The translations under genes and the position numbers were made by a program. From the NCBI GenBank assembly GCA_934120265.1, contig CAKOTU010000004.1, positions 285 to 64,284 of the forward strand: 64,000 nucleotides of DNA, read 5' to 3'. The first letter of the stretch is position 1; each line of letters opens with the position of its first letter. The DNA comes from an uncultured Bacilli bacterium (GTDB lineage Bacteria > Bacillota_I > Bacilli_A > RF39 > UBA660). The notes beneath the pieces are model-generated. The model was not told where the DNA came from, did no database searches, and saw nothing but the letters and a program-made list of their open reading frames with translations. Below, piece by piece: positions 3,679 to 44,642 of this stretch.

Positions 3679-3823
3679 GTTGAACCTTTATGGATTTATA
3701 AAACAGAAAGAAGTGGTATTATAAGTACAATATTTTAGTGAAAGCTGTATTATGTCTATATGTTTATAATAAATAAAAAGGGGTATAATTAGAATGTATA
3801 ATAAAGAGAGGAGTAAGAAATAT

Positions 3824-5674
3824 ATGAAAAAGAAAGGATTTACTTTAATAGAGTTATTAGCAGTAATAGTAGTACTAGCAATAATAGCGCTAATCGCAAC
3901 ACCAATAGTAACAAGAGTAATAAATTCTAGTAAGGATTCTGCTAATAAAATAAGTGCAAGTAATTTTGCTAGTGAGGCTAATAAGTATGTAATAGAAGAA
4001 AGACTAAGTGGGAATATAAAGAATGGAAATATTTTTAATGAAGTGTCTAAAAGAATGAATGGTAAGAAACCTACTTCGGGAGTAGTTTATGCGGATGACA
4101 ATGGGAATATCGCTTTAGCTTTAGTATTTGATGATAAATGTTATACAAAGGAATACGGTAGTGATGAAATAAAAACAACTGACATTAATGAATGTCATGC
4201 CCCAGTAGATTATTTAGCACTTGGAAATACAGAGAATGATACAGAAGCAACATTCTTTAATGGACCTATCAAAAAAAGTAGTGTTGAAAAAATAGTGTTT
4301 GTAAATAGTAATCTTGTTCCAACAGATGCAATAGGAAAATGGAATGCAAGTGCAAGTGGTGAAGGAGATGTAGTTGCTTGGTACAAAGATGAAGATAAAA
4401 ATAACTTATACGAAGTATATATAGGTGGAAAAGACGGAGTAAAAGCTAATCCTAACTCATACAAATTATTTAATTATTTTACAAACTTAGTAAGTATAGA
4501 TTTAAAATATCTTGATACATCAAGCGTTATAGATATGTCTTTAATGTTTAATGATTGTTTAAATTTGACTACACTTAATTTAAGTAATTTTGATACATCA
4601 AGTGTTACAACTATGGCAGGTATGTTTCAGAACTGCTCCAAATTAATTACACTAGATTTAAGTAATTTTGATACTTCAAATGTTGTAAATATGAGAAATA
4701 TGTTTGCTTGGTGTTCAAATTTAAATGCCTTAGATTTAAGCAACTTTGACACGTCAAACGTTACTACTATGTATAGTATGTTTCAACTATGTTCAAACTT
4801 AACAACATTAGATGTAAGCCATTTTAATACATCAAACGTTACGAATATGTCATTTATGTTTAGCAAATGTTCAAGCTTAACAACATTAGATGTAAGTAAT
4901 TTTGATACATCAAACGTTACGAGTATGAAAGCTATGTTTCAACTATGTTCAAGTTTAACAACACTAGATGTAAGTAATTTTAATACATTGATGGTAACCG
5001 ATATGTCATATATGTTTAGCAAATGCTCAAGCTTAACAACGTTAGATGTAAGTAATTTTGACACCTCAAAGGTAACCAATATGGGATATATGTTTAATGA
5101 ATGCTCAAATTTGACAACATTAGATGTAAGCAATTTTGATACATCCAAAGTAACTGATATATCTCGTATGTTTCAAGGTTGTTCAAAATTAACCTATTTA
5201 GATGTAAGCAACTTTGATACATCGAATGTTACCAATATGCGTACTATGTTTCAAAAGTGTTCAAAATTAACTCAATTAGATGTAAGCAACTTTGATACAT
5301 CAAAAGTAACAGATATGGCTTATATGTTTTATGGATGTTCAAATTTAATAACATTAAACATAAGAGGCTTTAACACAACAAAAGTAACCGATATGAGTTA
5401 TATGTTTGAAAATTGTTCAAGGTTAACTAATTTAGATTTGAGTAGTTTTGAAACTAGTAAGTTACAAAATACGGAGCACATGTTTAATGGAAGTTCAAAA
5501 TTAGCAAATATTAATTTTTCAAAAGCAACATTTAACGCTGTAACTAAATATGATAAGATGTTTGGTGGATGTGGATTAATTAGTATTACAGTAAAAGATG
5601 ACGATGCAAAAACATTTATTGATGCTAGATTAAAAGATTCAAGTATTAATATTGAAGCAACAAAACAAAGCTAG
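3824..5674 (+). CDS. Modular prepilin-type protein: class III signal peptide, ~130-aa pilin-like head, 13 BspA/DUF285-type leucine-rich repeats
   Basis: MKKKGFTLIELLAVIVVLAIIALIATP. RBS gagaggag lies 10 nt before the ATG at 3824; the track start at 3794 has no RBS. The 25-aa periodic unit is LDVSNFDTSNVTNMxxMFxxCSxLTT. Confidence 0.85.
   Translation: MKKKGFTLIELLAVIVVLAIIALIATPIVTRVINSSKDSANKISASNFASEANKYVIEERLSGNIKNGNIFNEVSKRMNGKKPTSGVVYADDNGNIALALVFDDKCYTKEYGSDEIKTTDINECHAPVDYLALGNTENDTEATFFNGPIKKSSVEKIVFVNSNLVPTDAIGKWNASASGEGDVVAWYKDEDKNNLYEVYIGGKDGVKANPNSYKLFNYFTNLVSIDLKYLDTSSVIDMSLMFNDCLNLTTLNLSNFDTSSVTTMAGMFQNCSKLITLDLSNFDTSNVVNMRNMFAWCSNLNALDLSNFDTSNVTTMYSMFQLCSNLTTLDVSHFNTSNVTNMSFMFSKCSSLTTLDVSNFDTSNVTSMKAMFQLCSSLTTLDVSNFNTLMVTDMSYMFSKCSSLTTLDVSNFDTSKVTNMGYMFNECSNLTTLDVSNFDTSKVTDISRMFQGCSKLTYLDVSNFDTSNVTNMRTMFQKCSKLTQLDVSNFDTSKVTDMAYMFYGCSNLITLNIRGFNTTKVTDMSYMFENCSRLTNLDLSSFETSKLQNTEHMFNGSSKLANINFSKATFNAVTKYDKMFGGCGLISITVKDDDAKTFIDARLKDSSINIEATKQS
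4480..5520 (+). repeat. 13 in-frame ~75-bp LRR units (coordinates approximate)
   Basis: I counted 13 [NHGS]F[DNE]T[ST]xV motifs at 25-aa spacing. Confidence 0.8.
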
Positions 5675-9662: not shown

Positions 9663-11438
9663 ATGAAAAATGAAAAAGGTTTTACTTTAATAGAGTTATT
9701 AGCAGTAATAGTAGTACTAGCAATAATAGCGCTAATCGCAACACCAATAGTAACAAGAGTAATAAATTCTAGTAAGGATTCTGCTAATAAAATAAGTGCA
9801 AGTAATTTTGCTAGTGAGGCTAATAAGTATGTAATAGAAGAAAGACTAAGTGGGAATATAAAGAATGGAAATATTTTTAATGAAGTGTCTAAAAGAATGA
9901 ATGGTAAGAAACCTACTTCGGGAGTAGTTTATGCGGATGACAATGGGAATATCGCTTTAGCTTTAGTATTTGATGATAAATGTTATACAAAGGAATACGG
10001 TAGTGATGAAATAAAAACAACTGACATTAATGAATGTCATGCCCCAGTAGATTATTTAGCACTTGGAAATACAGAGAATGATACAGAAGCAACATTCTTT
10101 AATGGACCTATCAAAAAAAGTAGTGTTGAAAAAATAGTGTTTGTAAATAGTAATCTTGTTCCAACAGATGCAATAGGAAAATGGAATGCAAGTGCAAGTG
10201 GTGAAGGAGATGTAGTTGCATGGTATAAAGATGAAGATAATAATAACTTATACGAAGTATATATAGGTGGAAAAGGTGGAGTAAAAGCTAATCCTAATTC
10301 TACTAAATTATTTAATTATTTTACAAACTTAGTAAGTATAGATTTTAAATATCTTGATACATCAAGTGTTACAAGTATGCAAGCAATGTTTCAGGACTGC
10401 TTTAAATTAACAACATTAGACTTAAGCGGTTTTGATACATCAAAAGTAACCGATATGGGTGGAATGTTTAATGATTGTTTAAATTTAACTACACTAGATG
10501 TAAGCAGTTTTAATACTTCAAACGTTACAAGCATGCGAGCTATGTTTCAAAAGTGTTCGAAACTAACTGCTTTGGATGTAAGCCATTTTGATACATCGAA
10601 TGTTACAAGTATGAGATATATGTTTAATAAATGCTCAAGTTTGACAATATTAGATGTAAGTCATTTTAATACATCAAATGTTACAAGTATGCAAGGAATG
10701 TTTGCCTGCTGTTCAAGTTTAACAACACTAGATGTGAGTCGTTTTAATACTTCAAACGTTACAAGCATGCGAGCTATGTTTGAACTTTGTTCAAATTTAA
10801 CAACATTAGATGTGAGTAATTTTGATACATCAGAGGTAACTAATATGACGTTTATGTTCAGTCAATGTTCAAGTTTAACAATATTAGATGTAAGCAACTT
10901 TGATACATCGAATGTTACAAATATGCATACTATGTTTCAGGACTGTTCTAAATTAAATGAATTAGATGTAAGTAACTTTAATACGTCAAGGGTAACTGAT
11001 ATGGGTGGTATGTTCAGTTTCTTAATAAATATTAAATCATTAGATGTTTCTCATTTTGATACATCAAATGTAACCAATATGAAATCTATGTTTAATGAAT
11101 GCAATAATTTGGAATCTTTAGATTTAAAAAATTTTAGTACAGGATTAGTAACAGATATGAGTTATATGTTTGAAAATTGTTATAAGTTGACTGATTTAGA
11201 TTTGAGTAGTTTTGAAACTAGTAAGTTACAAAATACGGAGCACATGTTTAATGGAAGTTCAAAATTAGCAACAATCAATTTCTCAAAAGCAACATTTAAC
11301 GCTATAACTAAATATGATAAGATGTTTGGTGGATGTGGACTGACTAGTATTACAGTAAAAGATGATGATGCAAAAACATTTATTGATGCTAGACTAAAAG
11401 ATTCAAGTATTAATATTGAAGCAACAAAGGTAAGCTAG
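9663..11438 (+). CDS. Modular prepilin-type protein, paralog of 3824-5674, with 12 BspA/DUF285-type LRR units
   Basis: MKNEKGFTLIELLAVIVVLAIIALIATP with RBS aaggaggagg. Nt 9681-10219 are identical to 3839-4377. The 3' ~290 nt are also near-identical. Confidence 0.85.
   Translation: MKNEKGFTLIELLAVIVVLAIIALIATPIVTRVINSSKDSANKISASNFASEANKYVIEERLSGNIKNGNIFNEVSKRMNGKKPTSGVVYADDNGNIALALVFDDKCYTKEYGSDEIKTTDINECHAPVDYLALGNTENDTEATFFNGPIKKSSVEKIVFVNSNLVPTDAIGKWNASASGEGDVVAWYKDEDNNNLYEVYIGGKGGVKANPNSTKLFNYFTNLVSIDFKYLDTSSVTSMQAMFQDCFKLTTLDLSGFDTSKVTDMGGMFNDCLNLTTLDVSSFNTSNVTSMRAMFQKCSKLTALDVSHFDTSNVTSMRYMFNKCSSLTILDVSHFNTSNVTSMQGMFACCSSLTTLDVSRFNTSNVTSMRAMFELCSNLTTLDVSNFDTSEVTNMTFMFSQCSSLTILDVSNFDTSNVTNMHTMFQDCSKLNELDVSNFNTSRVTDMGGMFSFLINIKSLDVSHFDTSNVTNMKSMFNECNNLESLDLKNFSTGLVTDMSYMFENCYKLTDLDLSSFETSKLQNTEHMFNGSSKLATINFSKATFNAITKYDKMFGGCGLTSITVKDDDAKTFIDARLKDSSINIEATKVS
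10322..11285 (+). repeat. 12 in-frame ~75-bp LRR units (coordinates approximate)
   Basis: I counted 12 F[DNSE]T[ST]xV motifs, one unit (25 aa) fewer than the paralog. Confidence 0.8.
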
Positions 11439-14562: not shown

Positions 14563-15276
14563 ATGAAAAAAATAATACCTTTTAATAAAGAAATGTTATT
14601 TAATGATAATGTATTTGAAATAACAAGTATATCCTTGGAACACGATCTTAAAGTAAGTGATAATAATCTTATAAGTGGTAAATTTTATATAAATGGTGAA
14701 TATAAAATATCTGATGCAAGTACTAATACAGAGGTGTTTAAATTTGAGTTACCGTGTGACATAAACATAGATTCTAAATATATTTTAGATAATGTAAGGA
14801 TTGATATAGATGATTTTTATTATGAAGTTATTAATTCAAATATATTAAAAATTAATATTGATGTTTTAATTGATCGGTTAGAAGAAAAAAAAGAAGCAGA
14901 AGAAACTTTAGAGGAAATAAAAATAGAAGATGCTTCTGATGATAGAGTGAATTCAATTGAAATTAAAACAAATTCAATTGAAGAATTAGAAAAAGATTTA
15001 GAAAGAGAAGGTAATAATATGGAAACTGTAGAAAAAGAAAGATGTATTGAAGATGAAGATATAAGCAGTGTTAAATCGATTTTTGGTAATTTTACTGATA
15101 CTACTGAAACATATAAAACATATAAAGTTTATATCGTTCGTGAAGGAGATAATCTAGAAAGTATTATTCAAAAATATTCAGTTTCTAAAGAAATATTAGA
15201 AAAATATAATAATGTTAACGAAATTAATATTGGAGATAAAATAATAGTTCCTAGCTTATTAAATGAAAAAAATTAA
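14563..15276 (+). CDS. spoVID: SpoVID-like spore coat morphogenesis protein (C-terminal LysM)
   Basis: The N-terminus (ITSISLEHDLKVSDNNLISGKFYINGEY) resembles SpoVID. It has an acidic middle region and a C-terminal LysM domain (YIVREGDNLESIIQKYSVSKEILEKYNNV...GDKIIVP). Synteny with ysxE and valS supports the call. Confidence 0.6.
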   Translation: MKKIIPFNKEMLFNDNVFEITSISLEHDLKVSDNNLISGKFYINGEYKISDASTNTEVFKFELPCDINIDSKYILDNVRIDIDDFYYEVINSNILKINIDVLIDRLEEKKEAEETLEEIKIEDASDDRVNSIEIKTNSIEELEKDLEREGNNMETVEKERCIEDEDISSVKSIFGNFTDTTETYKTYKVYIVREGDNLESIIQKYSVSKEILEKYNNVNEINIGDKIIVPSLLNEKN

Positions 15277-16162
15277 TGATTTATTAAGGGAATATTCAAT
15301 AAAACCTCTTAGATATACAAAAGAAGGTAAAGCAGTCATTATTGATACCGATGACAAAAGATTTGTTATAAAAGAAAGATTTAATAAAGATTTAAAGATT
15401 TATAATTACTTAGCTTCTAGAAATTTTAATTATTATCCGCATATTATTAATAGTAGTAGTGATGATTATCAGATAATGGAATATATAGATCAATATGATA
15501 TTCCTGATGAACAAAAAATAATTGATTTAATTGATTTGGTTGCGCTATTACATAGTAAAACTACACATTTTAAAGAAACAACAGAAGATGATTATAAAGA
15601 GATATATGAGGATATTTCTAATAACATAATTTATTTAAATAGTTATTATAATGATTTAATTAATATTATTGATACAAAAGTTTATCCTAGTCCTAGTGAA
15701 TATTTGCTGGCCAGAAATATAAGTAAGATATTTGCTTCATTGAAGTACGCTGAACATGAATTAAATGAATGGTATGAAATAGTTAAGAATACTAATAAAA
15801 AAAGATTGGCTGTACTTCACAACAATCTTGATTTAAGTCATTTTTTAAGAAATAGCAATTCATATTTAATAAGTTGGGAAAAAGCTAAAGTAGATATACC
15901 AATATTTGATCTTTATAAATTGTACAAAAAAGTTGGTCTTGATTTTGAATTTACTGAAATACTAAAAAGATATGAAAAAAATTATCCTCTTTTAAATGAA
16001 GAAAGAAAACTATTATTTATTTTAATGGCTCTGCCTGATAAAGTTGAACTAGATAATAATGAATATGAAAATACCAAAAAAATGGGGAAGATGATAGATT
16101 TAGTATACAAAACAGAAATGATTATTTCACCATATTATTCTGAAGAAGGAAAAACCAAATAA
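15263..16162 (+). CDS. ysxE: YsxE/CotS-like kinase-fold spore coat protein
   Basis: Position directly after the spoVID-like gene and before valS, as in B. subtilis. The Brenner-type region is degenerate (VLHNNLDLSHFL). Confidence 0.5.
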   Translation: MKKINDLLREYSIKPLRYTKEGKAVIIDTDDKRFVIKERFNKDLKIYNYLASRNFNYYPHIINSSSDDYQIMEYIDQYDIPDEQKIIDLIDLVALLHSKTTHFKETTEDDYKEIYEDISNNIIYLNSYYNDLINIIDTKVYPSPSEYLLARNISKIFASLKYAEHELNEWYEIVKNTNKKRLAVLHNNLDLSHFLRNSNSYLISWEKAKVDIPIFDLYKLYKKVGLDFEFTEILKRYEKNYPLLNEERKLLFILMALPDKVELDNNEYENTKKMGKMIDLVYKTEMIISPYYSEEGKTK

Positions 16163-16431
16163 TACAAGGAAGATAAGAATTAGGAAAATATTAAATCGTG
16201 TTAAAATGAAAAAAGTAATAATTATTTGATAGATTAAAATAATTGCTAGTATACAAGAACAAAGACACCATTTACCACGATTTCTAAACCAATTGTTATT
16301 ACACATAAAATCACCTATAATAGTTTATGTAAATAGTTAAAATATGTATGTACAAAAGAATTTGTTTAAATTCTTTTTTTTTTCTTTAAAATATTATATA
16401 ATGTTGATAGTAATAATAATAGAGGTGACTT

Positions 16432-18540
16432 ATGAAGAATAATAAGGGTTTTGCAATAAGTAGTGTTGTTTATGCCATGTTAATACTTTTTTTAGGACTT
16501 ATCTTATTAATTTTAGGGAATCTAGCTAGTAGAAAGGCTATGTTTGATAAGGAAAAAAATGAAATACTTATGAGATTTAACGGTTATGAAGGGACCTTAT
16601 GTACTTTGATTGAAGGTGGGGCATATGATATTGGTTCTAAATATGAATGTGAATTAGGTGATAATGATCCAAAAATATTTTATGTTTTGGAATCAAGTGG
16701 AAGTAATATATCACTAATTATGAGTGCTAATGTTGATTCAAACGGGAAAGCTATAACTTCAACAAACATTCCTGATGACAAGGGTTTTTCTGCATGGGTG
16801 ACTCTAGGGGATTATATGTCCGCAGGAGGAACGGCATCTGATTTTGGTAGTGTTGGTGAGAATAGTCTTGGCCCACTTACAGCTTTAAAAAAACTAAAAG
16901 AGTTTACAAAACCATGGAAGAAATTAGCGCCATCACAAATTGTATTACCGACAGCAAATCAGGTAGCAACGGCAGGTGGAGATACAAAGTGGAGCGAAAG
17001 TTCAACCGGCAATGGATTTAGCTCTGCAACGTGGTTATATGATAATTTAAATGGAACTACTAATGCAGTTTCAGGTATATATGGTTATTGGACATCAACA
17101 GCTGTTGCATCCACTTCGAATCGTGCTTGGCGTGTGTACTCAACAGGTAACTTTCTTTCATATTTTGTTTCTTATGATGAAGGATACGGTATACGTCCAG
17201 TAATCACAATTTCAAAATCACAACTAGAAGTACCAATATTGTGTGTAGCTAAGACTACAGCAACAACAGGAAATGTATCTCGAGGAAGATATGAGTATGG
17301 TGATGAATACGAATGTGAATTAGGTGATGGACAAAAAAGAACATTCTTTATTTTGGATAAAACATCTACAGAAGTATCTTTAATAATGAGTGAGAACTTG
17401 GGAGCAGAAGCTGGATGGTGCAGTGATGATGATTGTAAAACAGACAATGTATGGGATAATACAAAAGGTCCAATAACTGCAAAAAGTGAACTTGAAAAAA
17501 GAACTACTAGTTGGAGTAAAATATCAAATAAAACAAAGATTACATTACCAACAGCACAACAAGTAGCAAAAGCCTCTGGCGAAACATTTAATAATTCTTC
17601 TGTTTCTGGGTTAGCAAAATGGTTGTGTGGGAATTTAAAAAGTGTTGTTGGATATTGGACATCAACACAGTTTATTGAAAATACATATGGTGCTTGGTAT
17701 GTTGGCTATAGCAATGATATTCGTGTTGATAGTATTGGAAATGACTATGATTATGGTATACGTCCAGTAATCACAATACCAAAAGCACAAATAAAATCAC
17801 CAAAGGTACAAAAATATAGAAATGGTAGTGAAGTATATTTTAATGTAACAACAGGTGTAAAATGTACATCATCAGATTATACAGAAACACAAAGCAATAT
17901 AGGTGTAAATAGTGGATGTATGAAGTTCTATATTTTTAATGATGATGGTGGTGACACATTAAATTTAATTTTAGATCATAATACAACTGCAACAATTTTA
18001 TGGAATTCAAGTGGAAGTAGTACTAGCGGTCCAAAAGAAGCGTTAACACAATTAAAAACTGATACAGAAAATTGGAATGGAACGGAAACTCCAACAAACT
18101 ATGCGATTGATCAAACAGGCCAAACAAGTGGTGCAAAATATATAATAGATTATAGTGCATACAAGGCAAGATTTATAACAGCACAGGAAGTAGCAACAAT
18201 CACAGGAAATACATCTTGGAATGAAAAAAATGCAAGTAGCGTATTTTACTTTGATACAAATGCAACAAGTAATAGTTCAACATGTCAAAGTGGGGATATA
18301 AGTGGATGCGCTTATGGATGGCTATATGATAGAACAAAACCTGATTGTACGACATATGGATGTAAAAACAATTCAGATAAGTCAACATTGGGATATTGGA
18401 CAGTTTCTCCTCGTGCTGAAAGTATTAGAGAAAATTGGTGCGTTGCTTATGAAGGTTATCTTGGCGATTATATTGTTAACTTCCCAGCTTATTATGGTAT
18501 ACGCCCAGTTATAGAAATATCGGCAAAGAAACTTTTATAA
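16432..18540 (+). CDS. Three-module surface protein with a degenerate pilin-like N-terminus (no Glu+5)
   Basis: MKNNKGFAISSVVYAMLILFLGLILLIL. There are two type-A modules (YECELGD...LIMS...LPTA.QVA...GYWTST...YGIRPVITI) and one type-B module homologous to the 26834 C-terminus. RBS agaggtga. Confidence 0.75.
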   Translation: MKNNKGFAISSVVYAMLILFLGLILLILGNLASRKAMFDKEKNEILMRFNGYEGTLCTLIEGGAYDIGSKYECELGDNDPKIFYVLESSGSNISLIMSANVDSNGKAITSTNIPDDKGFSAWVTLGDYMSAGGTASDFGSVGENSLGPLTALKKLKEFTKPWKKLAPSQIVLPTANQVATAGGDTKWSESSTGNGFSSATWLYDNLNGTTNAVSGIYGYWTSTAVASTSNRAWRVYSTGNFLSYFVSYDEGYGIRPVITISKSQLEVPILCVAKTTATTGNVSRGRYEYGDEYECELGDGQKRTFFILDKTSTEVSLIMSENLGAEAGWCSDDDCKTDNVWDNTKGPITAKSELEKRTTSWSKISNKTKITLPTAQQVAKASGETFNNSSVSGLAKWLCGNLKSVVGYWTSTQFIENTYGAWYVGYSNDIRVDSIGNDYDYGIRPVITIPKAQIKSPKVQKYRNGSEVYFNVTTGVKCTSSDYTETQSNIGVNSGCMKFYIFNDDGGDTLNLILDHNTTATILWNSSGSSTSGPKEALTQLKTDTENWNGTETPTNYAIDQTGQTSGAKYIIDYSAYKARFITAQEVATITGNTSWNEKNASSVFYFDTNATSNSSTCQSGDISGCAYGWLYDRTKPDCTTYGCKNNSDKSTLGYWTVSPRAESIRENWCVAYEGYLGDYIVNFPAYYGIRPVIEISAKKLL

Positions 18541-18591
18541 AAAGAAATTATAGGATTGACATTACAAAATAAAATGATATATAATAGTCAC

Positions 18592-18812
18592 ATAAAAACT
18601 TTGAACTTGAGGAGTAAACTAAAGCGTTTTAAAGAGAGTCTATGGTTGGTGGAAATAGATAAATTAATTGGTTGAAGGTAGCAAGCCAGTTGAATATCTA
18701 AGTAAATAGGATATTACGTATATTATGCGTTAAATAATTAAGGTGTAGAAATACATAAATTAAGGTGGTACCACGTAAACTCACGTCCTTATCTAGGATG
18801 TGAGTTTTTTAT
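18592..18812 (+). promoter_or_regulatory. T-box leader controlling valS
   Basis: Promoter TTGACA(18556)-18-TATAAT(18580). AGAGAG plus distal loop GGTTGGTGGAA. F-box-like GCGTTAA. T-box AAGGTGGTACCACG. Terminator actcacgtcct/aggatgtgagt plus tttttt. The likely specifier is GUA within gaaGGUAGc, but the register is ambiguous. Confidence 0.85.
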
Positions 18813-18832
18813 ATTTTAATAGGAGGAATATT

Positions 18833-21373
18833 ATGTTAGAAAGTAAATATAATCATTTAAGTGTTGAAGATGGAAAATATGAAAATTGGAAAGAGAAGGG
18901 ATATTTTGAGTCTGGTGATTTAAGTAAGAAACCATACTGTATTGTTATTCCACCTCCAAATGTAACAGGTAAATTACATTTAGGCCATGCTTGGGATACA
19001 ACACTACAAGATATTATTATTCGTTATAAAAGAATGGATGGATATGATGCCCTTTGGGTTCCTGGTATGGATCATGCTGGAATAGCAACTCAAGCTAAAG
19101 TCGATAAAAAATTAAAAGAACAAGGCATAAAACCACGTGAAATGGATCGTGAAGAGTGGTTAGAACATGCATGGGCTTGGAAGAGAGAATATGCAGATAA
19201 TATTCATGCACAATGGGCTAAAATGGGATTAAGTTTGGATTATACTAAAGAAAGATTTACTTTGGATGAAGGGCTTAGTAATGCAGTTAAACATGTCTTT
19301 GTAACTTTATATAATGAAGGATTAATATATAGAGGAGAAAGAATTATTAACTGGGATCCTGAAGCTATGACAGCGCTTTCTAATGAAGAAGTAATATATA
19401 AAGATGTAGAAGGTGCATTCTACCACATTAAGTATTTTATAGAAGGAACTAATGATTATTTAGAAGTAGCAACAACTCGTCCTGAAACATTGTTTGGAGA
19501 TACTGCTGTTGCTGTTAATCCTAGTGACGATCGTTATAAACATTTAATAGGAAAAAATGTAGTTCTTCCTATTGTTAATAAGTTAATACCTGTAGTTGGT
19601 GATGAACACGCTGATCCAGAATTTGGTACAGGAGTTGTTAAAATAACTCCAGCTCATGATCCTAACGATTTTGAAGTAGGAAATAGACATAATCTTGAAA
19701 GAGTTATCGTTATGAATCCTAATGGTACTATGAATAAGAATGCTGGCATTTATGAAGGAATGGATCGTTTTGCTTGTCGTGAGAAACTTGTAAATGATTT
19801 AAAAGAACAAGACTTACTTATATCTATTGAACCAATTGTTCATAGCGTAGGTCATAGTGAAAGAACAGATGTAATGGTTGAACCTTATTTATCTAAACAA
19901 TGGTTTGTTAAAATGAGACCTCTTGCAGATAGAGTATTAGAAAATCAAAAAAACAAAGATACAAAGGTTAATTTTGTTCCAGAAAGATTTGAAAAAACTA
20001 TGAATCACTGGATGGAGATTACTTATGACTGGTGTATTTCTCGTCAACTTTGGTGGGGACATAGAATTCCTGCTTGGTATAAAGGTGAAGAAGTATATGT
20101 TGGCATAAATCCACCTGAAGGTGAAGGTTGGGTACAAGATTCAGATGTATTAGATACTTGGTTCTCTAGTGCCTTATGGCCATTTTCAACCCTTGGTTGG
20201 CCAGAAAAAACAGATTTACTAGCACGTTATTATCCTAATAATGTTTTAGTAACAGGATATGATATAATTCCTTTCTGGGTAAATAGAATGACTTTCCAAG
20301 GACTTCACTTTACAGATCAAAGACCATTTAAAGATTGCCTAATACATGGACTTATTCGTGATAAACAAGGACGTAAAATGAGTAAATCATTAGGTAATGG
20401 TGTAGATCCTATGGATGTTATAGAAAAATATGGATGTGATTCATTAAGATTTTTCTTAACAACATCTACTGCTCCTGGTATGGATTTAAGATATGATGAA
20501 GAAAAAGTTGCTTCAACTTGGAACTTTATTAATAAACTTTGGAATGCATCACGTTTTGTTTTAATGAATATTGAGGACTTAACAAAAGATACTTATACAT
20601 TAGATAACTTATCGATTAGTGATAAATGGATTTTAACAAAACGAGAAAACTTGATTAAGACAGTTAGAAAGCATATGGATAATTATGAATTTAACGTTGT
20701 TGGTACAGAACTTTATAGTTTTATTTGGAATGATTTCTGTGATTGGTATATAGAACTTGCTAAAGGAAATATGAATAATACAACAAAGAGTGTACTTCTT
20801 ACTGTATTAACAGATATATTAAAGATGTTGCATCCATTTATGCCATATGTAACAGAAGAAATATATTTGATGTTACCAATACATGATGAATCAATCATGA
20901 TAAGTTCTTACCCAGTATATAATAAAGATTTAGTATTCGAAGACTCTAAAGAATTAGATAATATTATTGATTTTATTGTTAAAGTAAGAACTGCTAAACT
21001 AGAACATAAGATACCAAAAGATTCAAAAGTATATTTTGAAGGTAATTATAAAGATTTAATTTTAAAATCTCTTCGTGTTGCTTCTGAATATTTAATAGAT
21101 AATAGTGATATGGATGGAGTAGAAGTAATTAGTTCAAATAAAAATTATAGAATTAAGTATATGTTTGATACTTCTATTGACAAAGAAAAAGAGTTAGAAT
21201 CACTTCAAAAAGAAAAAGAAAACTTAGAAAATTCTATTGCTAGAAGAAAGAAACTTTTAAGTAATGAAAACTATGTAAGTAAAGCTCCAGAAAATATTGT
21301 TAACAAAGAAAGAGAAGATTTACTAAAAGAAGAGAATGAATTAAAATTAATTTTAGAAAAAATGGGCAATTAA
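18833..21373 (+). CDS. valS: Valine--tRNA ligase
   Basis: HIGH motif ([12 protein letters not shown]), KMSKS, and a C-terminal coiled coil. ATG at 18833 follows aggagg; the track start at 18800 is a GTG inside the T-box terminator. Confidence 0.95.
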
Positions 21374-21436: not shown

Positions 21437-21826
21437 ATGAACGAGTTAAATAATGTAGTAACTGCAACTGGACAATACAATAACATCCCAACCTCACTTA
21501 CTTCTAATACTTCAGTAGTTAATATGATAGAAGGACTTACGCTAACTAAAGAAGCGGATAAACAAAATTGGAGTAGTGGAGATTTAACATACACAATAAC
21601 TTTAAAAAATGAAACAGATAAGGTATATTCAAATTTGGTCATTAAAGATGTTATTAATACAACTTTAGTAGAGTTTGTAAAAGGAAGTGTGACTATTAAT
21701 GATACTCCTGCAACTGAATCACAATATTCTTATGATGAAGGTAGTAGTACATTAACAATCAATTTAAGTGATGCCGGACCCTCATCAACAAATACTCTCA
21801 CGTTTCGCGTTACAAAAAAAAGTTAA
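21437..21826 (+). CDS. Small DUF11-like (conserved repeat domain) beta-sandwich protein, possibly truncated at an A8 run
   Basis: LTKEADK...GDLTYTITLKN...V.IKDVI...FV.GSVTIN...TLTINL...TLTFRVT resembles the DUF11 repeat. RBS gggaggtga. See the finding on 21812-21971. Confidence 0.55.
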   Translation: MNELNNVVTATGQYNNIPTSLTSNTSVVNMIEGLTLTKEADKQNWSSGDLTYTITLKNETDKVYSNLVIKDVINTTLVEFVKGSVTINDTPATESQYSYDEGSSTLTINLSDAGPSSTNTLTFRVTKKS

Positions 21827-22105: not shown

Positions 22106-22468
22106 ATGAAAATGAATAAGAAAGGTTTTACTTTAATTGAATTATTAGCAGTTATCGTAGTATTAGCTATTATCGCTTTAATCGCTACTCCAATTGTTAT
22201 GAGTACAATTAATAAAGCTCAAGAAGGTGCAAATAAGAGATCTGTAGAAGGTTACATGAAAGCTTATGAAGCAGCATATTATGAATATATGCTTGAAAAT
22301 GGTGGTGCTGAACCAGCAACTAAATTAACTTCAGGTATTGATTATAATGGTGCTACAGTTACTTGTGAAACAGTTACAGTAACAGCTGATAAAAAATTCA
22401 GTGCTACTTGTACAGTAAATGGTAAGACTTACAAATATGAAAATGGAAAAGCTGATAATAATAAATAA
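22106..22468 (+). CDS. Short type IV pilin / pseudopilin-like protein (120 aa)
   Basis: MKMNKKGFTLIELLAVIVVLAIIALIATPIV, then a ~85-aa head with 2 Cys. RBS ggtggtga, an upstream TTGACT-type promoter and its own terminator. Confidence 0.85.
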   Translation: MKMNKKGFTLIELLAVIVVLAIIALIATPIVMSTINKAQEGANKRSVEGYMKAYEAAYYEYMLENGGAEPATKLTSGIDYNGATVTCETVTVTADKKFSATCTVNGKTYKYENGKADNNK

Positions 22469-22549: not shown

Positions 22550-23875
22550 ATGAGCAAAATAATAAATAAGTTAAATTTCATATTAATTATATTTGTGTTG
22601 GTATTAAATCCATTATGGTTGTTAACATGTGCCAACCTAAAATCATTTGGTTTAACAATACCTTTTTATTATTATCAAATATTATATTTTATAATTCCGG
22701 TAGAAGTAATTATTTATGCATATAAAATTATAAAAAAAGAAGTTAAATTTAATTATTATGATATGATTGTATTTATATTGTTAATATTACTTGGGATTGT
22801 TACTAGTAATTCGATTGATGTATCCACATCAATTTGGGGAGCTTATAAAAGAAATGAAGGCCTTTTGACGATGATAAGTTATTACTTGTTGTTTTTAAAT
22901 TGCAGAAGTTTAAATGAGAAACAAATACGTTTTGGTGTAAAAGTTCTATTTGAAATAGGAATTGTGCAATTTGTTTATTGTTTATTTCAAGTTTTTTTGA
23001 GATTCCCAGGATTAGAATTATTTTCTTTAAATGATGTAAATTATATGGCAATGGGTTTTGTAGGAAATCCAAATTTCTTAGGAAGTTATTGTATAATGTT
23101 ATTAGGATTAGCTCTTATGTTATATTTTATTAAAAGTGAAAGAAAATATTTTTGGTTAAGCATTATATTTTTTATTAATTTAATTTTGTCTCAATCCACT
23201 GGTCCTTTCTTTTCTTTTATAATATTATTTATCTTTATGATTATCTTCATGAAAATCAAAAACATAATTAATTGGGAAAAAGTAGGTATTGTATTTGTTA
23301 GTTTTATGTTAACCTTTATTGTTGTCAGTAATGGTGTAGAATTATATTGTAAAAAGGTATTTAATGATAAGATTGTTTCTAGTTATACAATAAAAGGTGA
23401 TATGCTAAATACTTTAAATTTATTTGGATTCTCTAAAGAAAATGGTGATAAAGACATAACAATTGAAGATTATGGTTCTGGTAGAATTACTATTTGGAAA
23501 AATACTTTAAAAATAGTACCTAAGTATTTTTGGCTAGGTTCTGGTATAGATACATTTGGATATGTTTACCCTGATAATAATAAAGGACTATATTATGATA
23601 AAGCACATAATGAATATCTTCAAATTCTTGTTACAGAAGGAATTTTTTCATTAATATTATACCTTAGTTTATTATTAACCTTGTTTGTTGATGGCATAAA
23701 AAGTAATAATAAACTTGTTTGGATATTAATGATGGCTTTTGTAGGGTATGCTTTGCAAGCGTTTTTAAATATAAGAGTTAATACAGTCGCACCAACATTT
23801 TATATAATAATAGGAATGATGGCAGGGCTTATTAGTCAAGAAAAAGTAAAAGCGAAAATCAAGGAAGTTGCATAA
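22550..23875 (+). CDS. O-antigen ligase family (Wzy_C-type) polytopic membrane protein
   Basis: ~10-12 TM helices and an external loop with YDKAHNEYLQILVTEGIFS, the AHN.YLQ...E.G signature of O-antigen ligase / O-oligosaccharyltransferase relatives. Confidence 0.7.
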   Translation: MSKIINKLNFILIIFVLVLNPLWLLTCANLKSFGLTIPFYYYQILYFIIPVEVIIYAYKIIKKEVKFNYYDMIVFILLILLGIVTSNSIDVSTSIWGAYKRNEGLLTMISYYLLFLNCRSLNEKQIRFGVKVLFEIGIVQFVYCLFQVFLRFPGLELFSLNDVNYMAMGFVGNPNFLGSYCIMLLGLALMLYFIKSERKYFWLSIIFFINLILSQSTGPFFSFIILFIFMIIFMKIKNIINWEKVGIVFVSFMLTFIVVSNGVELYCKKVFNDKIVSSYTIKGDMLNTLNLFGFSKENGDKDITIEDYGSGRITIWKNTLKIVPKYFWLGSGIDTFGYVYPDNNKGLYYDKAHNEYLQILVTEGIFSLILYLSLLLTLFVDGIKSNNKLVWILMMAFVGYALQAFLNIRVNTVAPTFYIIIGMMAGLISQEKVKAKIKEVA

Positions 23876-23929
23876 ACTTTCTTTTTTTTTAATCTTGTTA
23901 TATAATATACATACAGATGGAGGATTTTT

Positions 23930-24874
23930 ATGGAAAAAATTTCAATTATTGTACCTTGTTATAATGAAGAAGAAGCAATGCCAATATTTTATGAAGAAAT
24001 ATGTAAAGTTGCAAAAAAAATGAAAAAAGTAGATTTTGAGTTCATTTTTGTAAATGATGGTTCTAAAGATCATACTTTAGATGTTGCTCGTGATTTACAT
24101 AAAAAAGATGAAAGAGTAAGATATGTTTCATTTTCTCGTAATTTTGGAAAAGAAGCTGGAATGTATGCCGGTTTAGAAGCTGCTCGTGGAGATTATGTTG
24201 CTATTATGGATGTTGACTTACAAGATCCACCTGCTTTAATAGAAGAAATGTATGAAACATTAAAAAATGAAGATTATGATTGTGTAGCATCTCGCCGTGT
24301 TTCAAGAAAAGGTGAGCCACCAATAAGAAGTTTCTTTGCTAGATGTTATTATAAGTTAATTAATAAAATATCTAAAACAGAAATAGTTGATGGTGCTCGT
24401 GACTTTAGATTAATGACTCGTCAAATGGTTGATTCTATTCTAGAATTAAAGGAATATAATCGTTATTCTAAAGGAATATTTAGTTGGGTAGGATATAAAA
24501 CTAAATGGTTAGAATATGAAAATGTCGAAAGAGTAGCAGGAACTACTAAGTGGTCTTTCTGGAAATTATTCTTATATTCTTTAGAAAGTATAGTAGCGTT
24601 TTCTACTGTACCGTTATCAATAGCTGCTGTAATGGGATTGTTATTTTGTTTAATAGCATTTATTCTAATTATAGTTATTGTTGTAAAAACATTAACTGTT
24701 GGGGATCCAGTAGCAGGATGGCCTAGTATGGTATGTATTATTTTCTTTGTTAGTGGTATTCAATTATTCTGTTTAGGAATTATTGGACAATATCTAGCTA
24801 AAACATATTTAGAAGTTAAGAATAGACCAATTTATATTGTTAAAGAAACTGAGGAATCTGAATGCAAAAAGTAG
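23930..24874 (+). CDS. GT2 polyprenyl-phosphate glycosyltransferase (GtrB/CsbB-like)
   Basis: IIVPCYNEE, DGSKD, DVDLQDPP, plus two C-terminal TM helices typical of GtrB-type enzymes. Confidence 0.8.
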   Translation: MEKISIIVPCYNEEEAMPIFYEEICKVAKKMKKVDFEFIFVNDGSKDHTLDVARDLHKKDERVRYVSFSRNFGKEAGMYAGLEAARGDYVAIMDVDLQDPPALIEEMYETLKNEDYDCVASRRVSRKGEPPIRSFFARCYYKLINKISKTEIVDGARDFRLMTRQMVDSILELKEYNRYSKGIFSWVGYKTKWLEYENVERVAGTTKWSFWKLFLYSLESIVAFSTVPLSIAAVMGLLFCLIAFILIIVIVVKTLTVGDPVAGWPSMVCIIFFVSGIQLFCLGIIGQYLAKTYLEVKNRPIYIVKETEESECKK

Positions 24875-25284
24875 TAGATTTATTTAATAAATATAAAGAA
24901 GTAATTATGTATTTAATATTTGGTGTTTTAACAACGGTTGTAAGTTTGGTTACTTATTATGCTTTAACACTTACAATATTAAATCCTAATAGTGCTTTAC
25001 AATTACAATTAGCAAATATTATATCTTGGATTTTAAGTGTAGCGTTTGCTTATATCACTAATCGTAAGTTTGTATTTGAAAGTAAAAGTGAAAATATCGC
25101 TAAAGAATTAAGTTCTTTTGTGGGCGGTAGAATATTAACTTTACTCATGGATATGGCAATTATGTTTATATTTGTGACATTATTACATTTTAATGATAAA
25201 ATATTTAAAATGATATCACAAGTAATAGTTATAGTAGCAAATTATATAATAAGCAAATTATTTGTCTTTAAAGAAAGCAAATAG
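24862..25284 (+). CDS. GtrA-family membrane protein (putative lipid-linked sugar flippase)
   Basis: 140 aa with 4 TM helices. Overlaps the GtrB-like gene by 13 nt. Ends in the typical NYIISKLFVFK. Confidence 0.7.
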   Translation: MQKVVDLFNKYKEVIMYLIFGVLTTVVSLVTYYALTLTILNPNSALQLQLANIISWILSVAFAYITNRKFVFESKSENIAKELSSFVGGRILTLLMDMAIMFIFVTLLHFNDKIFKMISQVIVIVANYIISKLFVFKESK

Positions 25285-26833: not shown

Positions 26834-27970
26834 ATGAAAAAGAAAGGATTTACTTTAATAGAATTACTAGCGGTAATAGTAGTATTAGCAATAATAGCAT
26901 TGATTGCAACACCAATAGTAATGAACACAATTAAAAAATCACAAAAAGGAGCAGCTGAGAGAAGTGCAGATAACTATATTGATGCTGTAGAAACAGCAGT
27001 TGCAACAGCAAGACTAGATAATAATGATGTTCCAGATGGAACATACACAATAGATGAAAATGGAAATCTATTAGTACCAAGTTTACCAAATGGCAAATTA
27101 ACAATCGAAATGAATGGAAATAAACCAAAGGGTGGAACAATCACAATAAAGAATGGGCAAGTAACAACTGACTCAAAGATGACAGTAGGAAGTTATGAAG
27201 TATCATACAACCCAACAACAAATAAATATGAAGCGTCAGAAGAAGGAACATCAACTAAAACATATGCAAACGGAGAAGTAGTATATTTTAACGTAACAAC
27301 AGGAGAAAAATGTTCAGCATCAGATTATACAGATGATATCATGGAAAAAGACGGCTGTTTGAAATTCTATGCATTTAATGATGAAGGTGGAAACAAAGTA
27401 AATTTATTACTAGATCATAATACAACAGCAACAGTAGCATGGAATTCAAGTAAAAGTAATACAAATGGTCCAAAAGAAATATTAGATAGTTTAAAAACAG
27501 CTACAGCGTCATGGAAAGGAACGGAAACTCCAGCAAATTATACAATGGATCAAACGAGTAAAACAAGTAAAGCAAGCTATACAATAGATTATAGTGGATA
27601 TAAAGCAAGATTAATAACAGCGCAAGAAATAGCTCAAATAGTAGGCAATACATCTTGGGATGAGAAAAGTGCTAGTAGTGAATATTATTTTGATTCTAAA
27701 TCAAGTTTTGCAAGTTCTACATGTACAAGCGGAAATACAACAGGTTGCCAATATGGATGGCTTTACGATAAAACAAGCGCAAGTTGTACAACATATGGAT
27801 GTTTAAATAATTCAGGTAATAGATACTGGACAGCTTCTTCTTATAGCGGTGATTCTAGTAATGCTTGGTATGTGGATTATAGTGGCTCAATAGGAAATGA
27901 TGGTGTTAACTATCCTGGTTTCTATGGTGTACGTCCAGTTATAGAGGTATTAAAATCTAAACTTTCGTAA
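26834..27970 (+). CDS. Modular prepilin-type protein with a type-B DUF1566-like C-terminal module
   Basis: MKKKGFTLIELLAVIVVLAIIALIATPIVM. The pilin head contains LTIEMNGNKPKGGTITIKNGQV. The C-terminal ~240 aa are collinear with module 3 of 16432-18540 and end in YGVRPVIEV. Confidence 0.85.
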   Translation: MKKKGFTLIELLAVIVVLAIIALIATPIVMNTIKKSQKGAAERSADNYIDAVETAVATARLDNNDVPDGTYTIDENGNLLVPSLPNGKLTIEMNGNKPKGGTITIKNGQVTTDSKMTVGSYEVSYNPTTNKYEASEEGTSTKTYANGEVVYFNVTTGEKCSASDYTDDIMEKDGCLKFYAFNDEGGNKVNLLLDHNTTATVAWNSSKSNTNGPKEILDSLKTATASWKGTETPANYTMDQTSKTSKASYTIDYSGYKARLITAQEIAQIVGNTSWDEKSASSEYYFDSKSSFASSTCTSGNTTGCQYGWLYDKTSASCTTYGCLNNSGNRYWTASSYSGDSSNAWYVDYSGSIGNDGVNYPGFYGVRPVIEVLKSKLS

Positions 27971-34228: not shown

Positions 34229-35164
34229 ATGAAAAAAAGAGGATTTACTTTAATAGAGTTACTAGCGGTAATAGTAGTATTAGCAATAATCGCACTTATT
34301 GCAACACCAATAGTAATGAACACAATAAAGAATGCTAAGAAAGGAGCTGCAGAAAGAAGCGCAGATAGCTATCTTAAACAATTAGAATTAACAATAGCTG
34401 AAACTAGGTTAGAAAATAAACCAGTATCTGATGGTACATATTCTATAAATGCAGAAGGAAATCTAGAAGGAAATGGTTTAATAACACCATTAGTAGTAGA
34501 AATGAATGGAAATAAACCAACTGGAGGAACAGTAGTAATAACAAATGGCGAGGTATCACCATCAGAAACAAATATGATAATAGGAGAATATAATTTACGT
34601 TATAATGAAACATCAAAGAGCTATACTGCCGAAGTAGCAGTTAAATTATGTAAAAAAGCATCAAGTGTAAATTTAAGCGATTTAAAATTAGGTGATGAAT
34701 TTACATGTGATTTAGGTGATGAAGAATCAACTAAAAACTTAGTATTCTATGTGTTAGAAAAAAATGGTTCACAAGTATCTTTGATTATGAATAAAGTATT
34801 CACAACTCCAGCAGGAGATAAAGTTCCATATTCAATGAAAGCTAATGTATTTAAACTTTTCAAATATACTAAACTAGATGAATCACAAATTACTTTACCA
34901 AGTGGAGAGCAAATTGCCGCAGCAAGTAATAATACAACTTGGACACCAAGTGGTTCTAATACAGCTTTAGTTACAAATCAAATGCCAAATTGGTTAAAAA
35001 CAAATCTAGAGGTTACTGGTACATACTGTTATTGGACATCTACTGAGTTTGATTCTAGTAAACAATGGGGTGCTGGATTAAAAGGTTTATATGCTGAAAC
35101 AGCAACATCTGCAACTTGTGGATTCCGTCCAGTTATAACAGTCTCAACATCTGATTTAGGTTAA
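34229..35164 (+). CDS. Modular prepilin-type protein with one type-A DUF1566-like module
   Basis: MKKRGFTLIELLAVIVVLAIIALIATPIVM. The pilin head contains VVEMNGNKPTGGTVVITNGEV. Module: GDEFTCDLGD...SLIMN...ITLPSGEQIAAA...CYWTST...CGFRPVITVS. Confidence 0.85.
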   Translation: MKKRGFTLIELLAVIVVLAIIALIATPIVMNTIKNAKKGAAERSADSYLKQLELTIAETRLENKPVSDGTYSINAEGNLEGNGLITPLVVEMNGNKPTGGTVVITNGEVSPSETNMIIGEYNLRYNETSKSYTAEVAVKLCKKASSVNLSDLKLGDEFTCDLGDEESTKNLVFYVLEKNGSQVSLIMNKVFTTPAGDKVPYSMKANVFKLFKYTKLDESQITLPSGEQIAAASNNTTWTPSGSNTALVTNQMPNWLKTNLEVTGTYCYWTSTEFDSSKQWGAGLKGLYAETATSATCGFRPVITVSTSDLG

Positions 35165-39023: not shown

Positions 39024-39601
39024 ATTTAGAAGAGTATGCACATAAAAATAATATTCCAATTATGATGAAAGATGGAATTGAATTTTTATTGGATTATATT
39101 AAAAATAATAATATCAAAAACATTTTAGAAATAGGTTCAGCAATTGGTTATTCAGCGATAAGAATGGCTTTAGTAGATGATAGTGTTAGAGTTACAACCA
39201 TTGAAAGAGATGAAGAGAGATATAAAGAAGCTTTAAAAAATATAAAAGATTTTAATTTGAATAGTAGAATAAATGTTATTTTGAGTGATGCCTTTGATGT
39301 AGAACTTAACGATAAATATGATTTAATATTTATTGATGCAGCTAAGAGTCAATACATTAAATTTTTTGAAAAGTTTAAAGAAAATTTAAACGATAATGGA
39401 GTAATTGTCTCTGATAATTTAAATTTTCATGGACTTGTTCATGCAGATGAAAAAGATCTTAGTAGAAATGTCAGAGGTCTTGTAAGAAAATTAAATAATT
39501 ATGTTGACTATTTAAAAAATAATAAAGAATTTGAAACATTATTTTATGATATTGGTGATGGAGTCAGTATCAGTAAAAAGGTAGGTGTTAAAGATGAATA
39601 A
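39008..39601 (+). CDS. Class I SAM-dependent O-methyltransferase (YrrM/TrmR-like)
   Basis: ILEIGSAIGYSAIRMA and IFIDAAKSQY, plus synteny. Confidence 0.8.
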   Translation: MVRILDLEEYAHKNNIPIMMKDGIEFLLDYIKNNNIKNILEIGSAIGYSAIRMALVDDSVRVTTIERDEERYKEALKNIKDFNLNSRINVILSDAFDVELNDKYDLIFIDAAKSQYIKFFEKFKENLNDNGVIVSDNLNFHGLVHADEKDLSRNVRGLVRKLNNYVDYLKNNKEFETLFYDIGDGVSISKKVGVKDE

Positions 39602-40754
39602 AAAAGGATTTACTCTAGTTGAACTTATTGGAGTGGTAGTTATATTAGGACTTATTGCTTTAATAGCGTTTCCAGCTTTATTAAATCAAATTAATACATC
39701 AAAAAATGAAGTAAGTGAGTCAGTAAGGGAATTAGTTATTAGTTCTTCAAAGTCGTATGTTGAGGATGATACTCAACTTGCACCTAAAAAATATTGTATA
39801 ACATTGGAAGAACTTATTGATGGTGGTTATTTAACTGAAGGAATTGTTAGTTCAGAACGTGATAAATTACAAAATAAAAGAGTGATGGTTACTTATTATA
39901 ATAACAAATATAATTATGAATTAGTTGATAGTAAAGATTGTTATATTTGTAAAGGTGTAAAAGCAGTAACAGTAGATGATGCAACCGTTCCTACAGGTCA
40001 GTATAATACTGGAGATGAATATACGTGTGAAGTAAAAAAAGGAACAGAGTATAACTTCTTTGTTATTAGTAGTGATGAAAATAATGTTAATTTATTAATG
40101 GATAGTAACGTTAATTATTATGGTGAATCTGTAAAACTTGTTGATGGAAAAATACCAGATGATATGGAAGGTGATTCAAAGAAAAAGGGTTTAGTTGCTT
40201 TTATATCAGAAGCAGATTATCTAGCTGCAGGTGGATTAAAAGACGATTTTTTTCTTGAGGGTTATGGAACAGGTAATTTAGAAAAGGGTCCGATAACTGT
40301 ATTAAATTATTTAAATTTTGCGACCTCTTTTTGGACCAATATAGAAAATTTAAATGAGGTATATGATTATAGTGTTGATAAAAATGGATATACAATTCGT
40401 AATGAGTTGCAATCTTTAGAAGTTAGACTTAACGGGAAATCTAGACTTATGACTGGAACAGAGTTATTTTCTACAGGGTTTCCATTTGTAACAAAAAAGT
40501 GGATGACAGTGAATTTAAATCCTATAAGCGAAAAAGAGGGAATATATGGTTATTGGAATTTAGCTCCTTATGGCAAGTATGATGTATGGAATGTCAATAG
40601 TGATGGTGGAGATGCAGATGGAACTATAACTATTTATGATGAAAAACAAGGTTCTGTATCAGTTGAAGCTGATGATTTATCTTTTGATAATTATTGTGGA
40701 GTTAGACCTGTAATCACTGTTTCTAAAAGTATGATATACAATGATAACAATTAA
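39594..40754 (+). CDS. Modular prepilin-type protein (second N-terminal subtype) with one type-A DUF1566-like module, embedded in the yrrM-yrrN junction
   Basis: MNKKGFTLVELIGVVVILGLIALIAFPAL. The ATG overlaps the yrrM stop (ATGAATAA) and follows aggtaggtg. Module: GDEYTCEV...NLLMDSN...GYWNL...CGVRPVITVS. Confidence 0.85.
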   Translation: MNKKGFTLVELIGVVVILGLIALIAFPALLNQINTSKNEVSESVRELVISSSKSYVEDDTQLAPKKYCITLEELIDGGYLTEGIVSSERDKLQNKRVMVTYYNNKYNYELVDSKDCYICKGVKAVTVDDATVPTGQYNTGDEYTCEVKKGTEYNFFVISSDENNVNLLMDSNVNYYGESVKLVDGKIPDDMEGDSKKKGLVAFISEADYLAAGGLKDDFFLEGYGTGNLEKGPITVLNYLNFATSFWTNIENLNEVYDYSVDKNGYTIRNELQSLEVRLNGKSRLMTGTELFSTGFPFVTKKWMTVNLNPISEKEGIYGYWNLAPYGKYDVWNVNSDGGDADGTITIYDEKQGSVSVEADDLSFDNYCGVRPVITVSKSMIYNDNN

Positions 40755-44634: not shown

Positions 44635-44642
44635 GTGGATTT

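Follow-up and report, generated by a model that had tools for sequence, protein, structure and literature searches.

The subject of this report is a gene on the forward strand at positions 16432-18540 of a 64,000-nucleotide stretch of DNA (hereafter the window) from contig CAKOTU010000004.1 of assembly GCA_934120265.1, which belongs to an uncultured bacterium of the Bacilli (GTDB lineage RF39; UBA660). Our analysis indicated that its 702-amino-acid product is probably the first, tip-located subunit of the pilus of this lineage, a subunit of the GspK/ComGG/PilA kind that lacks the glutamate at mature position 5 (Glu5) and carries adhesive cargo fused to a bare pilin-type alpha1 helix. We assign this reading a probability of about 0.6. 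For this uncultured organism, we infer cleavage, incorporation, tip position and ligand from sequence anatomy, conserved cleavage-site residues, near-universality in the family, adjacency to pilin genes and predicted structure. An earlier note on the window had left two options, a tip-located minor pilin carrying a triple adhesin or a former pilin now used as a signal anchor; the comparative evidence favours the former.

The protein starts with MKNNKGFAISSVVYAMLILFLGLILLILG, and its leader, MKNNKG, resembles the MK(N)KKG leaders of the canonical pilins in the same genome. Residues 5-29 read KGFAISSVVYAMLILFLGLILLILG, with Gly in position -1 and Phe in +1, and with Ser taking the place of Glu in +5; in relatives, residue +5 is Ser, Gly or Thr. 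The Gly-Phe pair is followed by a hydrophobic stretch of 23 residues, and the segment directly behind the putative cleavage site, FAISSVVYAMLILFLGLILLILG, makes up the first half of alpha1. The earlier description of an N-terminus that keeps K-G-F and the hydrophobic helix and loses T-L-x-E was thus exact. The same note called the pilin signal decayed, and on this point it was mistaken: no variation is seen at Asn-3, Gly-1, Phe+1, Ala+2 or Tyr+8 among 63 full-length family members from 63 species, conservation ends only at about residue 50, and the gene is near-universal and usually single-copy in the family. Judging from this alignment, the Glu5-less N-terminus is under strong purifying selection. 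Of the features that define a type IV pilin, the protein has the basic leader up to Gly-1 and the hydrophobic alpha1N, and it lacks Glu+5, a match to the motif hidden Markov models (HMMs) and the beta-sheet head; a pilin-type signal without Glu5, the mark of Glu5-less tip pilins, is present. Since Glu5, a pilin HMM match, the head and homology to GspK, ComGG or PilX are all lacking, we compare its presumed way of working to that of Glu5-less tip pilins and modular pilins, and do not assign it to a named family.

An N-terminal profile was run against 61 genomes sampled from the GTDB family of the studied organism and against a class-wide sample of 200 genomes. A strong match was obtained in 57 of the 61 genomes (56 of 60 genera; 48 of 50 good-quality genomes), usually one per genome. 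In the class-wide sample, all 20 genomes of this GTDB family had a match, compared with 0 of 180 genomes from 27 other families. A scan of approximately 185,000 species genomes with a profile built from 8 closer sequences revealed 130 loci, nearly all of them in genomes labelled as uncultured gut or rumen Bacilli or as 'Tenericutes' or Firmicutes metagenome-assembled genomes. More distant members were found in Mycoplasma sp. CAG:877, Clostridium sp. CAG:302 and CAG:914, and loci labelled Muribaculaceae, other Bacteroidales or Ignavibacteriales were taken to be mislabelled bins.

In metagenome homologs, the first 50 residues are nearly invariant, while lengths and module strings differ. Among the 63 full-length members, an ALK/LTK glycine-rich domain was found at the C terminus in 12, a bacterial surface immunoglobulin (Ig)-like domain in 8 and an F5/8 type C domain, by two models, in 3 and 2; DUF6273, DUF285, phage Gp10_C, BspA-type leucine-rich repeat (LRR) and ricin B domains were also seen. 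At least 8 genera have a version of no more than 55-65 residues, which consists of the leader, the helix and a short Cys-containing tail. Because such helix-only versions exist, the selected unit appears to be alpha1 with its Gly-Phe junction, the modules being cargo. Most of these helix-only loci (L139-L148, from genomes G004, G016, G058, G034, G012, G013, G052 and G043) end in Cys-x(4-8)-Cys, and in 3 of 8 (G016, G012 and G052) a canonical pilin gene lies 2-19 nucleotides (nt) downstream. At another locus (L134:5995-6711), a coiled coil and a phage baseplate Gp10_C-type domain stand behind the same Glu5-less helix, which points to an exchange of binding domains with phage tail proteins.

The AlphaFold2 (AF2) model of the 702-residue protein (mean predicted local distance difference test score (pLDDT) of 86.7) contains a single helix of 44 residues (6-49), a low-confidence linker (46-53) and then three confident globular domains (57-265, 286-455 and 466-700). 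Module A (56-265) is 33% identical to module A' (270-455; E 4e-32) and 28% identical to module B (456-702) over the C-terminal 126 residues (E 6e-11). The division into two type A modules and one type B module proposed from the letters alone was therefore borne out, both by sequence homology and by the three modelled domains. A canonical paralog in the window (26834-27970) was modelled with an alpha1 of 54 residues, a confident beta-sheet head with strands in residues 69-136 and then a B module; because the AF2 model of the 702-residue protein shows a linker and modules where this paralog has its head, we call the protein headless.

As to what the modules are, Pfam DUF6273 was matched with 32.0 bits over the whole protein against a cut-off of 23.5, with the best stretch at residues 204-261, and Pfam Lcl_C scored 14.4 against a cut-off of 34.9, below the threshold. 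The best solved structure matched by the modules in Foldseek was the C-terminal domain of Legionella pneumophila Lcl (8q4e, probability 0.99), with C-type lectins ranking lower. Among viral models, gut-phage DUF6273/DUF1566 proteins matched the modules with E values of 9e-8 to 1e-2, and searches of PDB chains by sequence with modules A and B as queries returned nothing meaningful. The Lcl domain and these phage proteins belong to the same fold family as the three modules; Lcl itself, however, is a collagen-stalked trimer in a diderm and not a pilin fusion. Lcl binds sulphated glycosaminoglycans by a mechanism unlike that of classical lectins (PMC11162425). The term 'lectin-like' used in the earlier note is thus tenable for the fold family (DUF6273/Lcl_C) only.

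Comparison with a sibling species (approximately 90% nucleotide identity; L059) revealed how the modules are exchanged. The two genes are colinear through codon 50 (window position 16580) and again from 17792, and the A-A' segment (16581-17791) corresponds to one B-like module in the sibling (L059:6150-6877), so that the breakpoints of this cassette swap lie at the end of alpha1 and at the start of the last module. Among close orthologs that share this N-terminus, the module strings A-A-B, A-B-B, A-A-A-B, B-B, B-A and A-A(-A) occur. DUF1566-type domains are common targets of diversity-generating retroelements (DGRs). A search of the 94%-complete genome for a reverse transcriptase (PF00078) gave no hit; hypermutation of the modules by a DGR was therefore rejected, and the diversity was attributed to recombination. 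The modules differ by 0-1 single-nucleotide polymorphisms (SNPs) in 8 samples and are actively shuffled between species, a pattern that suggests selection on them.

The genome is that of a human-gut bacterium (1.00-Mb assembly, 27% GC, 94% complete). It contains 49 canonical prepilin genes with Glu5 (KGFTLIELLAVIVVLAIIALIATP...), which account for 5.2% of the genome and of which 26 carry A- or B-type modules. Most of them are scattered singly among housekeeping genes; examples in the window lie at 3794-5674, 9663-11438, 26834-27970, 34229-35164, 39585-40754, 46172-46537 and 50398-51984. Module B of the 702-residue protein is 56-78% identical to the C-terminal module of approximately 20 of these canonical pilins. 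There is one machinery locus, on contig C7. It encodes a platform protein of the PilC kind with 818 residues, the prepilin peptidase PilD (C7:41762-42526), a PilB transcribed in the divergent direction and two minor pilins with Glu5 (C7:44166-44618 and 44629-45216). The platform protein (C7:39297-41753) has an N-terminal extension of approximately 430 residues, in which additional hydrophobic segments and a long, acidic stretch of low complexity are present.

The genome encodes no second protein of the studied type. Two other candidates for a Glu5-less pilin were examined and rejected: C1:464-1132 encodes a multi-pass membrane protein and not a pilin, and C19:162-686 is pilin-like (RGWGLRSE...) but of another type. 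The product of the latter gene, which lies on the reverse strand, has 174 residues, begins in an unusual pilin-like manner with MNNNRGWGLRSELWICLGMILFF, shares with the small pilins their Cys-framed C-terminal motif and had no Pfam match. Across the family, a canonical Glu5 pilin gene follows the Glu5-less gene on the same strand at a distance of 1-150 nt in 18 of approximately 106 loci (a few loci being counted twice), and in 13 of these the distance is no more than 28 nt. In two genomes (G044 and G016), the downstream pilin gene is a homolog of the minor pilin linked to the machinery in the present genome. In this genome, as in many relatives, small canonical pilins are also encoded downstream of valS. 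The literature on pili of the RFN20/RF39 lineage yielded only a paper on TANB77 pilins (PMC11680825), which concerns a different clade and was not used as evidence.

The earlier note placed the gene between ysxE and valS, which is correct, and treated it as an insertion there, which is not supported. The order lon-(ORF)-spoVID-ysxE-(deacetylase-like gene of approximately 415 codons)-Glu5-less gene-(HD protein of approximately 240 residues)-valS-small pilin(s), where ORF stands for open reading frame, is present completely or partially in many genera. Of 64 loci, 26 have the Glu5-less gene no more than 2 genes upstream of valS, and 14 have it no more than 2 genes downstream of ysxE. Orthologs thus occupy the same site in many genera, flanked by the lon-spoVID-ysxE side, the valS side or both, and this is the finding that the note itself had named beforehand as one that would speak against an insertion. 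As far as gene order can tell, the gene is ancestral at this site within the lineage and is an insertion only relative to Bacillus subtilis; a recent insertion or horizontal acquisition was ruled out by the synteny across genera. The GC content of the gene (0.30-0.36, compared with 0.22-0.27 in the flanks) is no sign of acquisition, because valS shares the higher value and a composition rich in Gly, Ser, Thr and Ala fits it. The identical protein was found on 16 metagenome contigs, which shows that the reading frame is not a chance one; the gene differs by 0-1 bases in the 8 contigs compared, and among these its placement between ysxE and valS is seen in the 6 with a full upstream flank.

Both elements that the proposed reading combines have been described before. 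K-type pilins and the PilA of Streptococcus sanguinis lack Glu5 and sit at the tip, where there is no subunit above whose charge would have to be neutralised; PilA is added first, and its signal peptide is degenerate and escapes predictors (PMC9934059, PMC12153270). Display of adhesive modules at the tip has been described for the modular pilins PilB and PilC (PMC9934059, PMC8179133, PMC12153270). In the organism studied here, the single prepilin peptidase of the genome would cleave the protein after Gly6. Without a Glu5 to offer to a subunit above, the protein would be taken up first by the PilB/PilC machine and would end at the pilus tip, like GspK, ComGG and S. sanguinis PilA, so that its three C-type-lectin-like modules would be held beyond the cell wall as a distal adhesin. 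The ligands of the modules are probably glycans or other surface polymers.

With GspK, PilK-PilX, ComGG and PilA, the protein shares a class-III-like leader ending in Gly, a hydrophobic alpha1N without Glu+5 and a degenerate signal, as well as its occurrence as one per system and the expected first-in position at the tip. However, GspK, ComGG and PilA each have a globular pilin head and show no detectable sequence or HMM similarity to this headless protein, which also differs from that class in the location of its gene, in this genome, outside the minor-pilin operon and in its large grafted modules. In S. sanguinis, moreover, it is PilB and PilC, both with Glu5, that bear the modules, and not PilA. 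With modular pilins such as PilB (vWA) and PilC (lectin), the protein shares a pilin-type N-terminus, a short linker, binding modules, several of them in some cases, and a proposed display at the tip. It differs from them in that its pilin module is alpha1 only, without IPR012902, and in that its DUF6273/Lcl_C modules stand in tandem, 2-4 to an array, and are reshuffled among closely related species. The 49 canonical pilins of the same genome, finally, have similar leaders and the same A- or B-type modules (B up to 78% identical), but they possess Glu5, Pro22, a PF07963 match and a complete alpha1 with head, with one module each and many copies. Glu5-less cap pilins and modular adhesive pilins are already known, but as separate subunits with globular heads; here the two are combined in one protein without a head.

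Several observations weigh against the tip-subunit reading. The N-methylation motif models PF07963 and TIGR02532 gave no match to the protein at E<=1, although they did match the 120-residue pilin downstream and the paralogs in the window. T2SSK, ComGG, PilX_N and the other known-pilin profiles of Pfam and NCBIfam gave no match to it at E<=1 either, and the T2SSK, ComGG and PilX_N profiles had none among the 63 family members at E<=1e-3. A pilin without a head has few lateral contacts and may not be incorporated stably into a pilus. The match of the modules to 8q4e is modest (E 9e-3, template modelling (TM) score 0.55 on the target), so that 'lectin-like' is justified for the modelled fold family only and 'lectin' itself is a guess. 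A prepilin peptidase was found in 61 of 61 family genomes, and because every genome has PilD, co-occurrence with it does not discriminate. In the present genome, finally, the gene stands alone between ysxE and valS, outside the minor-pilin operon.

The strongest competitor of the tip-subunit reading is a membrane-anchored surface protein that borrows a pilin-type signal and, with or without cleavage by PilD, keeps its modules unpolymerised at the membrane or wall. Sugar-binding proteins with class III signals form the bindosome of Sulfolobus, and such an anchored protein would resemble them. The missing head, Glu5 and pilin HMM match, the stand-alone gene and a C-terminal cargo that varies as freely as in any anchored binding protein all agree with this explanation. 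However, a simple anchor needs no invariant G-1, F+1, A+2 and Y+8 across 63 species, the cargo-less helix versions of 55-65 residues would make no sense as anchors, and the frequent operon-like pairing with canonical pilin genes would be unexpected; three modules of approximately 4 nm each on the membrane would, moreover, probably fail to reach beyond a Gram-positive wall. We consider this explanation unlikely. The tip-subunit reading is also favoured by the lack of an LPXTG motif, a lipobox or any other anchor in the 702-residue protein, and in particular the second option of the earlier note, a former pilin turned signal anchor, fits poorly with the fact that Gly-1 and Phe+1 are exactly what stays invariant and that relatives have the gene directly before canonical pilin genes.

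It is also conceivable that the protein is a primer of pilus assembly, which nucleates the filament as has been proposed for PilA and GspI/K, and that the triple module is an accessory adhesin or a neutral passenger. Three observations would suit a primer: genomes reduced to 0.8-1.3 Mb universally keep the gene, usually as a single copy; cargo-less helix-only forms exist; and 8 independent contigs show no variable tract upstream. However, the modules are well conserved (0-1 SNP in 8 samples) and actively shuffled between species, and the explanation shifts the emphasis of the tip-subunit reading rather than excluding it; we regard it as improbable. Hardly any weight can be given to an ordinary Sec/signal-peptidase-I protein or to a canonical pilin gene, among the 49, that has decayed to a remnant. 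A positive N-terminus is indeed followed by a hydrophobic stretch, but with 23 residues this stretch exceeds the length of a Sec h-region, and it lies inside a continuous helix of 44 residues; the family alignment has no conserved AxA site after it, no other part of the protein is as well conserved in the family as the N-terminus, and the gene is intact and near-identical (0-1 bases) in 8 of 16 independent contigs.

If the protein is indeed a tip subunit, the minimal requirement for such a subunit would be a leader, Gly-1/Phe+1 and a helix, cassette exchange would explain how attachment specificity changes, and surveys based on the N-methyl motif would systematically miss such proteins. A survey of modular pilins that covered over 1,200 proteins was seeded on the IPR012902 N-methyl motif (PMC8179133) and would miss the Glu5-less class, since the latter lacks IPR012902. 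This alpha1 defines the lineage: its gene belongs to the universal core of a large uncultured family whose genomes measure 0.8-1.3 Mb, and the member sampled here devotes approximately 5% of its genome to pilins. The signature NNKG|FA[IV]S..[IL]Y provides a lineage-wide means of finding the candidate tip adhesin in every member. A bolder and rather doubtful extension is that the whole family has swapped a multi-subunit globular tip complex for a minimal helix-only Glu5-less cap. As a 'plug-and-display' adaptor, such a cap would present at the pilus tip whatever binding domain is recombined behind residue ~50, such as the C-type-lectin-like arrays here and the ALK-type glycine-rich, F5/8-C, ricin, BspA-LRR and phage baseplate Gp10_C domains of relatives; if this holds, these dependent organisms would gain a rapidly exchangeable attachment specificity for host glycans or other microbes.

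The coordinates of the gene, its parts and its surroundings are given in the table.

Table. Features of the Glu5-less gene and its flanks (positions in the window)
Feature	Positions	Strand	Basis or remark
Upstream flank: lon, then 217-residue ORF, spoVID-like gene, ysxE	spoVID-like 14563-15276; ysxE 15263-16162		ysxE = TIGR02904, E 2e-31
Promoter-like site TTGTTA-17-TATAAT	16293-16321	+	Consensus match only; inside the 269-nt gap after ysxE
Ribosome-binding site AGAGGTGA	16421-16428	+	Read from sequence
Leader peptide MKNNKG, residues 1-6; invariant Gly(-1); putative prepilin-peptidase site between G and F	16432-16449	+	N4 and G6 invariant in 63 family members
Pilin-type alpha1 helix, residues 7-49, FAISSVVYAMLILFLGLILLILGNLASRKAMFDKEKNEILMRF; Ser+5, invariant Tyr+8, no Pro22	16450-16578	+	AF2 and family alignment
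Flexible linker, residues 50-55, where canonical paralogs have the pilin beta-sheet head	16579-16596	+	pLDDT <50 at residues 46-53
Module A, residues 56-265, DUF6273/Lcl_C-like	16597-17226	+	Pfam DUF6273; pLDDT ~90
Module A', residues 270-455, second A-type	17239-17796	+	33% identity to A; structured 286-455
Module B, residues 456-702 and stop codon; larger Cys-rich variant of the same fold, C-terminus GIRPVIEI	17797-18540	+	28% identity to A; pLDDT ~96
Downstream flank: T-box, then valS	T-box 18592-18793; valS 18800-21373		
120-residue canonical prepilin (KGFTLIE), candidate major pilin; downstream of valS	22106-22468	+	PF07963 and TIGR02532 match; ComGC/GspG-like N-terminus

The ATG start codon of the 702-residue frame stands behind a good ribosome-binding site, and a run of ten T residues (approximately 16375-16384) lies nearer to it than the promoter-like site does. 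The whole upstream region, including this run, is identical in 8 independent metagenome contigs, and the gene itself shows only 0-1 base differences; there is thus no sign of phase variation at the run or inside the gene. The stop codon is followed at once by the control region of valS (window 18556-18807), in which a promoter in full agreement with the sigma-70 consensus (TTGACA-18-TATAAT) and a T-box leader that includes a terminator were seen; no separate terminator for the studied gene was found.

The gene of approximately 415 codons that precedes the family in many relatives was considered as a partner, but it is absent from this genome, which has only the 269-nt gap in its place, and was treated as a neighbour. 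By its sequence motifs, its product (L071:4656-5930, L130:4720-5931) is a membrane protein with a PASTA-like segment and the polysaccharide-deacetylase motifs LTFDDG and GNHT.H. Between valS and the 120-residue pilin, a protein of 129 residues with DUF11 repeats and without an obvious signal sequence is encoded (window 21437-21826), and it is kept in the sibling species L059. Directly after the 120-residue pilin (window 22550-25284) follow genes for a Wzy_C membrane protein of the O-antigen-ligase family, a GT2 glycosyltransferase and a GtrA-like protein; the Wzy_C protein resembles PilO/TfpO/PglL, and the trio is possibly a set for pilin O-glycosylation.

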